In this document: one piece after another, positions 9,027 to 20,563 of the stretch
Position numbering within the stretch: the stretch's first letter is position 1
How the letters are laid out: the number at the start of each line of letters is the position of its first letter
Source of the DNA: Escherichia coli
GTDB taxonomy: Bacteria; Pseudomonadota; Gammaproteobacteria; Enterobacterales; Enterobacteriaceae
Strand: one strand, 5' to 3'
Length of the DNA stretch: 64,000 nt
Assembly (NCBI GenBank): GCA_005400705.1
Contig: GCA_005400705.1_4079.1
Translations under genes and position numbers: made by a program
The notes under the pieces: model-generated
Database searches by the model: none
Seen by the model: only the letters and a program-made list of their open reading frames with translations
What the model was told of the DNA's origin: nothing

Positions 9027-9209
9027 ATGAATAAAGAACATAAAGAATTCTATATACGAAAACTAACATTCGTCCCCGTAAGAATATATAAAGAATGCGA
9101 CCCAAGATTATACCTATGGCACTTCAATGAGTGCATAAAAGATTCTATATACCATAAGAACTATAAAGAACAATTGTGCTCAGTACTAACACTAGTACTA
9201 TCATATTAA
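9027..9209 (+). CDS. Family A small protein
   Basis: 60 aa; MNKEHKEFY, tail LTLVLSY. Confidence 0.6.
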   Translation: MNKEHKEFYIRKLTFVPVRIYKECDPRLYLWHFNECIKDSIYHKNYKEQLCSVLTLVLSY

Positions 9210-9224
9210 TTAATAGAGAATACT

Positions 9225-9416
9225 ATGTATAAAAACTTCTATATAAGTAAACTAAAAGAAAATGAACAAGTATGGATTAGATCTATAATTCCACTGGCAT
9301 TTAATAGATATGCATTTAACAGATGTACCGAGATTGCTATAGACCCTTATAATATTAAAGAGAATGTACAGTATAATCAGTACTACTATATCTTAATGCT
9401 TATATATAGAAAGTAA
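9225..9416 (+). CDS. Family A small protein
   Basis: 63 aa; MYKNFYISKL, tail ILMLIYRK. Confidence 0.6.
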   Translation: MYKNFYISKLKENEQVWIRSIIPLAFNRYAFNRCTEIAIDPYNIKENVQYNQYYYILMLIYRK

Positions 9417-9693
9417 TTAAACACAAGTAGACAGGGGAAGCTCCTAGTGAACAACCTTTATGTACAGGCGAATTGTTAAAATTCAGCCTGGACAAATGCG
9501 ATCACTAGGATTCTCCCCAGGCTAAACCCCGTAATCATAGGTAGTCATAAGTAATCATATATAAACATTTATATGAGCACCGTAGAATCACAGAATGATT
9601 ATATATGATTCAGTACTGATTAGTATAGACAAGATTGCTCAAGAATGCACGGAAATGTGTGTGAATGATTCAGTACTGATATCCCACTAAGTA

Positions 9694-10600: not shown

Positions 10601-11220
10601 AAATTTTATTTTGTTTTTTCCAATAGTTCCCCTACCGCGTGGGGATAGTTTCCCCGCAGTATCTGGAGTTAGATTTTTCTGAATCTGGAATCATTATCTT
10701 ATAAACTGGGGGCAATGTCAACCGCCTGGACGGATATTTTTAAAAATTTTTTCAGTACTGAATTTTGGGCGTAACTATGCACCCGGTGGGCTTGAGTCTT
10801 TCTCGACTTGATGGAACTATTATACAGTACTGGAAAAATAAAGCAATACCCTGGAAGCAAAAAAGTTTTAATTAATTTGCTTGCTATCCTGGGCCGGACT
10901 ATGGTACTATATTTCAGTACTGAGAAAGTGCGTTTACCTGCTAGGGTGCGGGAGTGTATCCTTTTTTTATATCTTGAATTTTGGGCGTAATTCCGCACCC
11001 TCTGGGGTTTCCGCTTTCTCGCGTCTATGTAGTAATTATACGCTTTTTCAGGATCAAGTCAATACCTAAAAACAAAATAATTGAAAATAATTTAACGCGT
11101 TTAAACGGCCCGTAAAGCCCTGGAATGATTGGAATGGTGCAAATGTATAGCTTAGGTGTATTAATGCGTTAGAATGCGTCTGAGGCCGTTTTACGGGGTA
11201 TAGGGATGATTTGGTGGATT

Positions 11221-12790: not shown

Positions 12791-13034
12791 GCAGTTTACA
12801 AATCTTTACAATTGCCGGTATTGACTTATTTTGTCAGTACTGGCATAATGTATTCATTGGCAGATAAGCCGTAGCCCATAGGGTGCGGGAGTGTATCTAT
12901 AGAAAAAGTAGTTTATTACAGTTACAATTGTGCACCCGGTGGGTTAGCTGTTGTCATGGGGTATATTATACCAGTACTGGATAGTGCTGTCAATACCTTT
13001 TTACTATTCAGTACTGAAAACTATTTTTAAAAAG

Positions 13035-17875: not shown

Positions 17876-18145
17876 ATGAAAAATATCAGTACTTTAATCG
17901 ATGCAGGTACACATGTTCGGCGGTCAATGGTTGCAACCAGTACTACAAAACAAGTAGCGAGCGGTTATCTTGTATTTGTGCACGATGGTAAACTCCTGGA
18001 ACGTTCAATCAATTTTGATGTTAAAAACAATTGCCGTTTTATTATCTTTCGCCGTGAACAATATAAGATCGACATTCCAGCGAAGCCCATTAGCGGTGCG
18101 TACAACGTGCAATCATTGTTTGAGCGTCAACCATACACCTATTAA
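17876..18145 (+). CDS. Hypothetical protein
   Basis: 89 aa ORF after SD aagagga. Confidence 0.6.
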   Translation: MKNISTLIDAGTHVRRSMVATSTTKQVASGYLVFVHDGKLLERSINFDVKNNCRFIIFRREQYKIDIPAKPISGAYNVQSLFERQPYTY

Positions 18146-18196
18146 TCAAAACATCGTTAGCGGTTGATTTAGGCCGCTTATATTGAGGATTATACC

Positions 18197-18469
18197 ATGA
18201 ACGTTAATCAAGTACTGAATGAGATCGAAAGCATCATTAAACCGATGAAGCGTACTGATGCTATGTTAACACCGGAAGAATGCCGCCTATATGAGCGTTA
18301 TAGCGTCGAACAAGTCCAGGCAATGGCTATGGCTACCACAGCCGTTAAACCGCCTGAGAATGCGTTACAGGACGTTACAGGGGATTATATCATCAATCCA
18401 GTACTAGGGAAGATGGCTGCAATCACCGAAGATCAACAAGACTACTTAAGCCAGTACTTAAAAGGTTAA
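18197..18469 (+). CDS. Hypothetical protein
   Basis: 90 aa ORF after SD tgagga. Confidence 0.6.
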   Translation: MNVNQVLNEIESIIKPMKRTDAMLTPEECRLYERYSVEQVQAMAMATTAVKPPENALQDVTGDYIINPVLGKMAAITEDQQDYLSQYLKG

Positions 18470-18474
18470 TTAAT

Positions 18475-18684
18475 ATGCTTACTGTACAGGATAAGATCGA
18501 CATCTTAAAGGTTAATATGTATGTGATTGATGCCGTACCTGGTAAAGTATTTGCATACGATGATAGTACTGTAAGCGATTTCTACTATAGCCAGGACGTG
18601 GGGGATCTTTCTGTACAGTCGGTTATTGAAAACGTAGTTAATGCAGCGTATGAGCATTTACTTTCAAATAGTACTTGCAATTAG
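18475..18684 (+). CDS. Hypothetical protein
   Basis: 69 aa ORF. Confidence 0.55.
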   Translation: MLTVQDKIDILKVNMYVIDAVPGKVFAYDDSTVSDFYYSQDVGDLSVQSVIENVVNAAYEHLLSNSTCN

Positions 18685-18733
18685 TTTTTAAACGCGTATA
18701 ATGTTTTACATGAAGGGGAGAAATGATTCTCCC
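18670..18733 (+). promoter_or_regulatory. PeSL-type cassette
   Basis: agtacTTGCAAttag, TATAAT 18697-18702, hairpin ggggagaa-atga-ttctcccc. Confidence 0.6.
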
Positions 18734-18753
18734 CACTAATTAAGGAATATGAA

Positions 18754-18900
18754 ATGAAAGCATCAAAAAAGAGTAATACCAAGAAAGCATGTTCACCTTT
18801 CGCTGGGGTATTCCCTTTACGTTTCGTTGATGAAGTGGTTTCCTACCCGCCGGGCCTTACTCCTGAGATGGTAGAAAGTTTGCGTAAATCTAAAAAATAG
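18754..18900 (+). CDS. Small basic protein
   Basis: 48 aa hand-translated: MKASKKSNTKKACSPFAGVFPLRFVDEVVSYPPGLTPEMVESLRKSKK; PeSL and SD aaggaa upstream. Confidence 0.5.
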   Translation: MKASKKSNTKKACSPFAGVFPLRFVDEVVSYPPGLTPEMVESLRKSKK

Positions 18901-18963
18901 TACTTGCAATTAGTTTTCAGTACTGTATAATGTTTTACATGAAGGGGAGAAATGATTCTCCCC
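18899..18963 (+). promoter_or_regulatory. PeSL-type cassette
   Basis: tacTTGCAAttagttttcAGTACTgTATAAT, hairpin ggggagaa-atga-ttctcccc. Confidence 0.6.
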
Positions 18964-18981
18964 AATAACAGGAGAAACAAA

Positions 18982-19134
18982 ATGAAACAATACAACGCTC
19001 GGTTTGATGTTACTATCGGTAACGGCAAAGGTCAATTCTCTTTCAGTACTCGCAAAAGTTATACAGAAAACTTCCTGCGTAATTGTGCACTGACCGCCGC
19101 TCAAATTAAACATTACTTTCAGGCTAAAAAATGA
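18982..19134 (+). CDS. Small protein
   Basis: ATG 18982 (MKQYNARFD) after SD caggag; 50 aa. Confidence 0.55.
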   Translation: MKQYNARFDVTIGNGKGQFSFSTRKSYTENFLRNCALTAAQIKHYFQAKK

Positions 19135-19220
19135 AATCATTAGCTTACTATAGTTCGGCCCTGGTCGGTACATTGATCGCGGCATTGTTAGTAACCTATC
19201 TATTCTTTATGGTGATTTAA
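19131..19220 (+). CDS. Small hydrophobic (single transmembrane) peptide
   Basis: 29 aa MKSLAYYSSALVGTLIAALLVTYLFFMVI; ATG overlaps previous stop (ATGA). Confidence 0.4.
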   Translation: MKSLAYYSSALVGTLIAALLVTYLFFMVI

Positions 19221-19364
19221 ATGAATCCAACAGGTTTAAATTATAAAAGTTGTTCGGCGTTTACGAAAGCAAATAAAGCGAATGCACGTAAAGCGAAAGT
19301 ACAGGAATACATCAAGCAAGGCATGACGCGAAAGGCGGCGATTCTAAAAGCTAAAAATAAATGA
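19221..19364 (+). CDS. Small basic peptide
   Basis: 47 aa MNPTGLNYKSCSAFTKANKANARKAKVQEYIKQGMTRKAAILKAKNK; ATG adjacent to previous stop. Confidence 0.4.
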   Translation: MNPTGLNYKSCSAFTKANKANARKAKVQEYIKQGMTRKAAILKAKNK

Positions 19365-19373
19365 AAAAAGTGG

Positions 19374-19401
19374 TTGACTCCGGTCAGCCATTTTGCTATT
19401 A
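19374..19401 (+). promoter_or_regulatory. Promoter inside the repeated 100 bp element (copy 1)
   Basis: TTGACT 19374-19379, 16 nt, TATTAT 19396-19401; followed by agcccacagggtgcataagtgtatc. Confidence 0.45.
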
Positions 19402-19489
19402 TATATTCATTGAGAGATAGCTCACTAGCCCACAGGGTGCATAAGTGTATCTATTATATAAGTATTGAGTACTGAAAACTATTTTTAAA

Positions 19490-19554
19490 AAGTACTTGCA
19501 AACTATCTCAATTGGCGTATAATGTTTTACATCGCAAGGGGAAACGGTTTCCCC
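19490..19554 (+). promoter_or_regulatory. PeSL-type cassette
   Basis: aaagtacTTGCAAact, TATAAT 19518-19523, hairpin ggggaaac-g-gtttcccc. Confidence 0.6.
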
Positions 19555-19574
19555 TGGTAATAAGGAAACGAATC

Positions 19575-19916
19575 ATGACTATCTCAATTGCTCAATCTAA
19601 CTTTGAAAACGAAATCATCGCCCAGGCACTGCGTTTAAATGATGGTCGGGCCGAAATTAATTACGGTTTCAATTCAGGCGGTTGCGAAAAATATCAGTAC
19701 TTTGTAACGGCTGATGGCGGTGTCCTGGGGATCAATACAGTTATTGTAAACATTCAGAAAATTAATTTCAATGATCCAGAAGATAGCCAGTTTTACATCA
19801 CGGGCGTGAACGTGAACTATGAGGATGATTATCTAACTGATGATCACACTGGCGAGAAGTTAGAAAGTGCATACGGTGAAGATGATTATCAGTCCGGTCC
19901 AGAAGATTTTGAATAA
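19575..19916 (+). CDS. Hypothetical protein
   Basis: Track ORF 19512-19916 trimmed to ATG 19575 (MTISIAQ); 113 aa. Confidence 0.65.
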   Translation: MTISIAQSNFENEIIAQALRLNDGRAEINYGFNSGGCEKYQYFVTADGGVLGINTVIVNIQKINFNDPEDSQFYITGVNVNYEDDYLTDDHTGEKLESAYGEDDYQSGPEDFE

Positions 19917-19927
19917 TATTAAAAAAT

Positions 19928-19990
19928 AGTTTGACAATAGATTATAGTACTGTATAATAAGTTACATCAAGGGGAGAAATGATTCTCCCC
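19928..19990 (+). promoter_or_regulatory. PeSL-type cassette with TTGACA -35
   Basis: tagTTTGACAatagattatAGTACTgTATAAT, hairpin ggggagaa-atga-ttctcccc. Confidence 0.6.
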
Positions 19991-20010
19991 ACTAACAAAG
20001 AGAAAACAAA

Positions 20011-20223
20011 ATGGCTAATATCTGCACTGTACTGAAAAATGCAAAACAAGTTTTATTTTCTGATCATGAAAATTTCAACAAGGATATTACGGGCGTTCGG
20101 AATATCAAAGATGTAAAAAGTGTTATGGGTATCTATTGCAATATGAAACGTGTTGGTACGTTCGGCGACAAAGTACTATACCAGGCAGGGGATTATAACT
20201 TTACATTAACCATTATCAATTAA
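20011..20223 (+). CDS. Hypothetical protein
   Basis: 70 aa ORF (MANICTVLKN). Confidence 0.65.
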   Translation: MANICTVLKNAKQVLFSDHENFNKDITGVRNIKDVKSVMGIYCNMKRVGTFGDKVLYQAGDYNFTLTIIN

Positions 20224-20237
20224 AATATATTACCAGT

Positions 20238-20272
20238 ACTATTAACAATGATTGATAGTACTGGCATAATAA
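20238..20272 (+). promoter_or_regulatory. Promoter variant
   Basis: ccAGTACTaTTAACAatgattgatAGTACTggCATAAT. Confidence 0.4.
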
Positions 20273-20314
20273 CTTTTATCAACAGTAGTTAACTTAACAA
20301 AAGAGAGAAACAAA

Positions 20315-20458
20315 ATGATCGCACTAGATTCATTCATCGACGCAGTACTGGCAAAAACTGGCGAGGATCTGACCGCAGAACAATACGCGATGATCGAACA
20401 ATGTCAGCAAAACGGTAAATCGGTGAAAGATACTGTTAAGATTATCCGCAAGATGTAA
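20315..20458 (+). CDS. Small acidic protein
   Basis: 47 aa hand-translated MIALDSFIDAVLAKTGEDLTAEQYAMIEQCQQNGKSVKDTVKIIRKM; SD aagagag. Confidence 0.45.
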   Translation: MIALDSFIDAVLAKTGEDLTAEQYAMIEQCQQNGKSVKDTVKIIRKM

Positions 20459-20461
20459 GAT

Positions 20462-20494
20462 TATAGCCCACTGGTTAACGCTGGTGGGCTATAA
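20462..20494 (+). other. Long hairpin (10 bp stem) without a T-run
   Basis: tatagcccac-tggttaacgctg-gtgggctata; contains GCTGGTGG. Confidence 0.4.
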
Positions 20495-20563
20495 TTCATT
20501 ACCCTATACAATGCCAGTACTCAACCGTTTATCTCGTTAGAATGCGTTACAGGACGTTTACCA

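Follow-up and report, generated by a model that had tools for sequence, protein, structure and literature searches.

In T4-type phages, small genes without known function are flanked by PeSL (promoter-early stem-loop) motifs, which are strong sigma-70-like promoters joined to stem-loop terminators, and these motifs mediate modular shuffling (Arbiol et al. 2010, PMC2839356; Comeau et al. 2014, PMC4122927). PeSL promoters and terminators have been demonstrated to be active in T4-type phages, and a stem-loop just downstream of the -10 box marks one described PeSL subclass (PMC2839356). For the RaK2-like phage CBB, sigma-70 promoters clustered among short genes and reaching the terminal repeat have been read as marking an early host-takeover region (PMC5259590). 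The locus described here lies in a 64-kb stretch of Asteriusvirus DNA (hereafter the window), that is, DNA of a PBECO4/121Q-like jumbo phage of Escherichia coli with a genome of about 350 kb. With 601 nt around the locus as query, 36 Asteriusvirus records matched over at least 80% of the query length, with nucleotide identities of 89-99%. The cassette at 18904-19394 is a three-gene unit, A-B-C, which runs in the order sigma-70 promoter, 5' hairpin, ORF A, ORF B, ORF C and terminator, with ORF B and ORF C as its second and third cistrons.

Layout and expected timing of the cassette

Upstream of ORF A, a promoter scan found a sigma-70-type early promoter on the plus strand at 18904-18931 (TTGCAA-16-TATAAT, 10 of 12 matches), the promoter half of the PeSL, and direct reading of the same strand gave the stem-loop GGGGAGAA-atga-TTCTCCCC at 18944-18963, shortly after the -10 box and within the 5' leader. 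The promoter has AT-rich sequence upstream of it and a stable stem-loop next to it, and the whole is intergenic; the motif recurs many times amid short genes without known function, as is characteristic of PeSL. Near-identical promoter and hairpin motifs number at least 19 on the plus strand of the window, between 10055 and 28770, and none on the minus strand; most of the 19 plus-strand promoters have the same hairpin type downstream.

ORF A (18982-19134, plus strand) is the first cistron. It encodes 50 amino acids, follows a directly read ribosome-binding site, AGGAG, at 18970-18974 on the plus strand, belongs to PHROG 7119 (E=1.3e-27) and ends in TGA at 19132-19134. The initial annotation had reported two small peptides behind a PeSL gene at 19131-19364, and the promoter and hairpin that precede ORF A agree with that placement. 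The ORF listing returned both peptides on the plus strand, namely ORF B at 19131-19220, which begins with ATG and would give the 29-aa predicted single-transmembrane microprotein MKSLAYYSSALVGTLIAALLVTYLFFMVI, and ORF C at 19221-19364, which also begins with ATG and would give the 47-aa Lys-rich protein MNPTGLNYKSCSAFTKANKANARKAKVQEYIKQGMTRKAAILKAKNK. The overlap that had been described between the 29-aa frame and the previous stop is also present, the ATG of ORF B at 19131 lying in an ATGA with the ORF A stop, and the ATG of ORF C stands directly after the TAA of ORF B. The ribosome-binding site of ORF B is weak (AGG, 7 nt before the ATG), and ORF C possesses a good one of its own, GGTGAT, read directly on the plus strand at 19211-19216, within the last codons of ORF B.

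The cassette ends in an intrinsic-terminator-like hairpin on the plus strand at 19367-19394, AAAGTGGTTGAC-tccg-GTCAGCCATTTT, in which the terminator scan found 12 pairs followed by a T run and for which the fold z-score is -2.8. The homologous hairpin is annotated as a terminator in phage G17, and the copy in EJP2 has one stem partner changed with pairing kept (G:C here, a G·T wobble in EJP2). The promoter scan placed the next sigma-70-type promoter at 19374-19402 on the plus strand (TTGACT, 17 nt, TGcTATTAT), with the 5' arm of the terminator hairpin serving as its -35 box. This promoter is part of a repeated regulatory module that occurs in five plus-strand copies in the window, against 0.01 expected. 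Some pipelines call a 33-aa ORF with a TTG start at 19374-19475; we rejected it, as it overlaps both the terminator and the promoter and has a premature stop in UE-S1. An Rfam scan of 18000-20500 matched no family. The promoter, hairpin and ribosome-binding site upstream, the layout of the junctions, and the 12-pair hairpin with its T run downstream together point to a single transcription unit with three coupled cistrons.

The homologous locus of phage fEgEco12 lies at 9,064-9,544, and that phage has a direct terminal repeat of 20,993 bp (PMC13070987); in vB_Ec-M-J and Muenster the region is annotated as terminal repeat. Location of the cassette inside a direct terminal repeat of about 21 kb in relatives suggests immediate-early expression, and we infer from promoter type and position that the cassette would be expressed early, in keeping with the phage early region named in the initial annotation. 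The literature on the Asteriusvirus phages phAPEC6, Sharanji and fEgEco12 yielded no transcript or proteome evidence for ORF B or ORF C.

Conservation of the three reading frames

We aligned the homologous locus from 20 relatives, of which 19 were of good quality; the exception, the CMSTMSU record, is flagged UNVERIFIED_ORG, carries several single-base deletions and is the sole relative without both short ORFs intact. The frames of ORF B and ORF C are open in all 19 good-quality relatives in this alignment. Substitutions were counted on a minimum-change basis over the aligned relatives, and each ORF was compared with its two alternative frames. For all three ORFs the alternative frames gave dN/dS ratios of 1-2, and a synonymous excess appeared only in the stated frames. 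The excess is strongest in ORF A, with 19 synonymous to 5 nonsynonymous substitutions (dN/dS about 0.07, p=1e-9) and variable sites distributed 4/2/18 over the three codon positions.

ORF C shows the same pattern, with 27 synonymous and 26 nonsynonymous substitutions (dN/dS about 0.25, p=1.3e-6) and 33 of its 53 variable sites in third codon positions (12/8/33). Its indels across the relatives, of 6 and 15 nt, are all multiples of three, and at its 3' end a poly-A indel of 1 nt does no more than exchange the ending ...KNK* for ...KK*. The whole protein matches PHROG 29913 (E=1.3e-21), with its residues 1-47 aligned to positions 1-45 of the 45-position profile, and G17 has two copies of the product. 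Of 18 annotated relatives, 15 include ORF C, always as a "hypothetical protein", and 8 include ORF B under the same name, the other 10 omitting it. By these counts, and with ORF C in a PHROG family, the pair had not escaped earlier annotation. On this sequence record ORF C is very probably a gene.

For ORF B, tblastn coverage was end to end in 36 phage records, and the ORF was confined to Asteriusvirus. We counted 8 synonymous and 9 nonsynonymous substitutions (dN/dS about 0.35, p=0.028), with variable sites distributed 6/2/9 by codon position. Random single-base changes in ORF B would give less conservative amino-acid replacements than the nine observed, namely K>R, S>T, L>F, L>V, L>M, V>I, G>V and two T>A (P=0.027), and in no relative did a hydrophobic or small position gain a stop or a charged residue. 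The only indel is 6 nt long and in frame, and it occurs in the error-prone CMSTMSU record. RNA of the ORF B region folds no better than shuffled sequence (z=0.19), which together with the lack of an Rfam match argues that RNA structure does not explain the conservation. The evidence is modest owing to the short length of the ORF and the identity of at least 86% among relatives, and the evolutionary signal amounts to 17 substitutions among close relatives, with p about 0.03 in each of two tests. Even so, the substitution pattern makes it likely that ORF B is a gene.

The three ORFs differ in how far they reach beyond the genus. Homologues of ORF A occur in RaK2-like (56% identity), rV5-like (49%) and CR3-like (44%) phages, a far wider spread than that of ORF B, and an IMG/VR scan with ORF A returned phage 121Q itself only. 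No membrane ORF follows ORF A in EJP2, in rV5-like and CR9-like phages or in two metagenomic lineages. Cassettes that neighbour the one studied here are present in some relatives and absent in others. For ORF C, an exhaustive HMM search found a distant relative outside Asteriusvirus, the 46-aa protein P0007 (profile E=3e-6), which shares with it the pattern MNP...TKAD...G-x-T-R...A-I-x-KAK. P0007 is the first gene of an early-looking operon beside helicase and exonuclease genes on an unrelated 59.7-kb phage contig, and its vicinity holds no membrane peptide, which indicates that ORF B and ORF C are not obligate partners; an obligate pair was rejected on this ground. The two belong to one cassette and need not work together. 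The HMM search also found P0008, a 541-aa protein with two copies of an ORF C-like motif in an uninformative genomic context. CR9-like Certrevirus phages have a 51-aa ORF two genes downstream of the ORF A homologue, unannotated in CR9, which is weakly linked to ORF C (hhalign E=8e-4, probability 25%) and may be a remote relative of it.

Products of ORF B and ORF C and alternative readings

The description of the 29-aa peptide as transmembrane-like was upheld by two scales. Residues 11-29 have the best 19-residue Kyte-Doolittle mean, 2.56, and a summed Hessa value of about -2.9. A Lys occupies position 2, and from about residue 10 the peptide is hydrophobic through to its C-terminal …LFFMVI. 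The peptide shows a hydrophobic stretch of at least 19 residues, favourable predicted insertion and no other domain, as in membrane microproteins, and a single transmembrane segment is credible from its sequence. Hydrophobicity in a short ORF is by itself weak proof of a gene, since such ORFs arise by chance in an AT-rich genome: among the 376 ATG ORFs of 20-60 aa in the window, four are as hydrophobic as ORF B or more so, mostly antisense, and ORF B is the most hydrophobic of those on the coding strand. Searches of PHROG and Pfam with ORF B gave no significant match and no homologue with known function; PHROG 32088 aligned at E=0.03 and 15.4 bits over profile positions 34-58 of 60 only, which probably reflects a likeness of hydrophobic composition.

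The product of ORF C is basic, as had been stated for the 47-aa peptide, with 10 Lys and 2 Arg against 1 Glu and a pI of 10.5. AlphaFold2 modelled helices at residues 8-32 and 37-46 (pLDDT 73.6), so that a two-helix basic hairpin is predicted. Its two predicted helices contrast with the three-helix bundle of an HTH domain, and no Pfam HTH family matched. No significant match was obtained from Pfam, NCBIfam, a PDB sequence profile or Foldseek with the AlphaFold2 model, and neither a word-indexed search over 5.8 billion proteins nor an exhaustive HMM search over 1.84 billion representatives returned anything but hypothetical phage proteins or noise. Sub-threshold noise matches included SUV3_C, aureocin A53 and perm_prefix_1.

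We propose that host RNA polymerase with sigma-70 would start at the consensus-like promoter at 18904-18931 and make a transcript that carries the 5' hairpin, ORF A, ORF B and ORF C and ends at the hairpin at 19367-19394. Ribosomes finishing ORF A would re-initiate on ORF B by translational coupling, so that B would be made in step with A, and ORF C would be translated both through coupling and independently from its own GGTGAT site. The ORF B product would span the inner membrane once as a helix; by the positive-inside rule, its Lys-2 end is predicted to be cytoplasmic and its C-terminus to reach the periplasmic face. There it would most likely bind a host inner-membrane protein or complex early in infection, rather than form a pore, a role suggested by analogy with characterised bacterial membrane microproteins. 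The host membrane modulator put forward in the initial annotation is a reasonable but likewise tentative suggestion. The ORF C product would be a soluble basic helical hairpin, most likely binding nucleic acid or an acidic partner, and the two share an operon without being obligate partners. The activities proposed for the two products, drawn from composition and context, are tentative and may well be otherwise. The explanation as a whole, in which ORF B and ORF C are genuine, separately translated cistrons of an immediate-early cassette with the coupling and activities described, is in our judgement probable, if narrowly so.

Several other readings bear on the same data. ORF B may yield no functional peptide, being either a spacer or a frame whose translation serves as a ribosome relay from ORF A to ORF C, with hydrophobicity that follows from T-rich codons. 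This would fit its very short length, its weak ribosome-binding site, the equally hydrophobic chance ORFs elsewhere in the window, the marginal statistics and its omission from more than half of the annotated relatives; moreover, its last three codons, ATG GTG ATT, are invariant and double as the ORF C ribosome-binding site, which implies constraint at the nucleotide level. We nevertheless consider it unlikely. The synonymous excess is confined to the ORF B frame, each of the nine replacements leaves a hydrophobic or small residue in place with no stop or charged residue appearing, the sole indel is in frame, an unrelated transmembrane ORF takes the same coupled position in RaK2-like phages, and ORF C, with a good ribosome-binding site of its own, needs no relay. 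If ORF B is translated into a functional peptide, it could instead damage the membrane, in the manner of the type I toxins TisB, Hok and Ldr or of a pinholin, depolarising the cell for host shutdown or phage exclusion. The type I toxins TisB, Hok and Ldr resemble ORF B in size and in having a single hydrophobic helix, and the strong early promoter would suit such a role. Against it, there is no evident antisense-RNA partner: the minus strand has a single promoter-like site, at 19035-19007 (9 of 12 matches), which lies within ORF A and not ORF B, and no Rfam family matched. There is also no charged C-terminal tail, neighbouring endolysin or late promoter as expected of a holin or pinholin, the neighbours of ORF B being small genes without known function; no family match was found for ORF B, and early depolarisation would be expected to harm a jumbo phage with a long cycle. 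A toxin is on these points an improbable identification.

The junctions could alternatively be sites of recoding, with a -1 slip in the A6 run joining A to B as a 79-aa tail-anchored protein and read-through of TAA joining B to C. ORF B does lie in the -1 frame of ORF A, with the overlap in an invariant run of six A (GCT AAA AAA TGA), and ORF B and ORF C share one frame, split only by an invariant TAA. Yet the T AAA AAA before the stop gives no canonical X XXY YYZ heptamer in the ORF A frame, no stimulatory RNA structure follows (the z-score of 0.19 again), the RaK2-type junction AAA TAA TG lacks a slippery run, UAA leaks least among the stop codons, and a frame shared by ORF B and ORF C is a one-in-three coincidence; we regard fusion products as very improbable. 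Finally, ORF C could be a cationic peptide that acts on membranes together with ORF B, as the leaderless bacteriocin aureocin A53 would suggest. Its length and Lys-rich composition are similar, and it has a weak NCBIfam match to the aureocin A53 family NF033881 (E=0.03), but the 14 bits of that match are far under the curated cut-off of 27 bits, the protein has no tryptophan, and its relative P0007 occurs without a membrane peptide. ORF C is also not amphipathic, with a negative mean hydrophobicity and a maximum hydrophobic moment of 0.41 that 772 of 2000 shuffles equal, and an amphipathic membrane-active peptide was rejected on the latter ground. The bacteriocin reading is hardly credible, and we retain the reading of ORF B and ORF C as separately translated cistrons.

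Comparison with known phage cassettes and membrane microproteins

In the Alcyoneusvirus phages RaK2, K64-1 and Muenster, a 38-aa hydrophobic ORF with a single helix directly follows the ORF A homologue. Its start overlaps the stop of that homologue and its own stop overlaps the start of the next gene; it is gp442 in the K64-1 annotation and is unannotated in RaK2 and Muenster. Between RaK2 and Muenster we counted 8.5 synonymous and 11.5 nonsynonymous substitutions, with conservative replacements and 2 of 20 changes at second codon positions. The ORF overlaps a promoter-like TTGACA...TATTAT, an overlap that may explain part of its conservation. K64-1 gp442 is thus like ORF B in its position after the ORF A homologue, its overlapping start, its single hydrophobic helix and its conservative substitutions, and unlike it in its length (38 against 29 aa), its promoter-like overlap, the gene that follows it and its sequence, comparison of the two having detected no similarity.

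In two jumbo-phage genera, a gene of the ORF A family is paired with a transmembrane microprotein coupled to it. Conceivably, the ORF A-family proteins of RaK2-like phages would work paired with a downstream coupled membrane microprotein that recruits or regulates the soluble 50-aa partner at the host inner membrane, the microprotein being ORF B in Asteriusvirus and the unrelated 38-aa ORF (gp442) in Alcyoneusvirus. Such a pair would act within minutes of the onset of infection, and slippage by -1 in the A6 run might also yield the two as a fusion. On this view, one membrane partner would have given way to another at least once, with its position and coupling unchanged. We think it improbable that the pairing has this general meaning.

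Judged from their sequences, ORF B and ORF C are best read as genuine conserved small early phage proteins of the PeSL-cassette type. GenBank lists both as hypothetical, and they are what one would expect of the early region of a phage. RaK2-group jumbo phages have hundreds of very short early genes without known function, which probably serve to take over the host and to counter its defences. A coding signature in a 29-codon frame that more than half of the annotated relatives examined leave out supports consistent annotation of microproteins, and A-B-C is a small, well-defined operon suited to cloning and testing.

Single-pass bacterial membrane microproteins of fewer than 50 aa include KdpF (29 aa), PmrR (29 aa), YohP (27 aa), AcrZ and MgtS, and are thought to act by binding larger membrane proteins. 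ORF B resembles these five in size, in having one hydrophobic helix that extends to or near the C-terminus and in its basic N-terminal residue. It differs from them in being phage-encoded and early, and no sequence relationship to them was found.

The cassette itself is closest to the PeSL-ORFan cassettes of T4-type phages. As in those, a sigma-70-like promoter with a GGGG...CCCC stem-loop is repeated, here 19 times on the plus strand in 19 kb, the genes flanked are very short, a terminator bounds the unit, and cassettes are present or absent among relatives. The differences are that the host of the cassette is a RaK2-like jumbo phage, that three coupled cistrons take the place of one ORFan, and that promoter and terminator are here predicted from sequence. 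By analogy with the T4-type examples, the whole cassette would count among the accessory modules, flanked by PeSLs, that are exchanged between related phages.

A repeated terminator-promoter module at the 3′ end of the cassette

Downstream of ORF C, the 47-aa lysine-rich protein at 19221-19364, lies a regulatory module (19366-19445, plus strand) composed of a terminator hairpin, a sigma-70 promoter and a 16-nt box, with further copies on the same strand of the window starting near 12821, 22760, 25761 and 28206. The 5′ arm of the hairpin doubles as the promoter's -35 box (TTGACT), which is followed by a 17-nt spacer and TATTAT in the manner of sigma-70 promoters, and the conserved 16-nt box TAGCCCACAGGGTGCA sits about 25 nt past the promoter. 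Inverted copies of this box were additionally found at 10778, 12931 and 14861. Comparison across Asteriusvirus shows stronger conservation of the module than of the ORFs beside it, and blastn matches outside the genus come from RaK2-like Klebsiella phages, Salmonella phage Munch and Pectobacterium phage CBB. In phage EJP2, the module directly follows ORF A, and one partner of a stem pair has changed there relative to the window with pairing retained (G:C in the window, G·T wobble in EJP2). An Rfam search of the module returned no match. A phage regulator could use the module as its operator; alternatively, a small RNA of approximately 80 nt could begin here.

Several relatives carry an annotated CDS over this module (for example, WPEC3 CDS038, JP4 CDS0284 and SHEFM2K M2K_0191), corresponding to a 33-aa ORF with a TTG start (LTPVSHFAIIYSLRDSSLAHRVHKCIYYISIEY; 19374-19475, plus strand). 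Because it sits on the terminator and promoter, and the UE-S1 version contains a premature stop, we rejected this candidate as probably not a gene.

Conservation and frame geometry of the cassette

ORF A (50 aa, 18982-19134) is under strong purifying selection (dN/dS of about 0.07), and its conservation reaches RaK2-like, rV5-like and CR3-like phages; in the rV5-like group, the homologous sequence makes up the C-terminal portion of a protein of 65-94 aa. Its match to the Pfam SMF/DprA SAM domain (PF25317) is sub-threshold, scoring 20.5 bits (E=5.8e-4) where the cut-off is 27. At the junction with ORF A (19126-19134), the 29-aa transmembrane-like ORF B (19131-19220) is shifted into the -1 frame, with the ATGA overlap falling inside an invariant run of six A residues. 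At the junction with ORF C (19218-19223), the two ORFs share one frame and are separated by a single invariant TAA. Recoded fusions across these junctions are conceivable but unsupported.

Two records of related phages require care. In UE-S1, a minus-strand CDS (1740-1943 of locus L003) is placed across the conserved ORF A, which is itself left out of the record; this CDS is likely a mis-annotation. At several points along the locus, single bases are deleted from homopolymer runs in the CMSTMSU sequence (MH494197.1, flagged UNVERIFIED_ORG), which frameshifts ORF A and ORF C, and we consider this record unfit as evidence for gene loss.

Small ORFs in more distant relatives

A 38-aa hydrophobic ORF (MIVKVLTTIIQYCIITGVAFVLAVAIVFSTVIVLGNIS), coupled to the genes on both sides, occurs in RaK2 (locus L021, 1050-1166), Muenster (L026, approximately 650-766, with a TTG start) and K64-1 (L027, 650-766), and is annotated only in K64-1 (gp442). 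Despite its overlap with a promoter-like TTGACA...TATTAT, the substitution pattern fits a coding sequence. For the CR9-like phages, a 51-aa ORF (MNPHKLLITAYPNKGDKRHTLDRLTRYYQEAGHSKATARAMAKKELRFGKN) was found in Cronobacter phage CR9 (L023, 1419-1574), where it is unannotated, and in a second locus (L040, 1329-1484). Enterobacter phage vB_ExiM_F5M1E and metagenomes contain homologues of the same length. In CR9, it overlaps the stop of CR9_162, two genes past the ORF A homologue, and profile comparison (hhalign E=8e-4) points to a possible remote relationship with ORF C.
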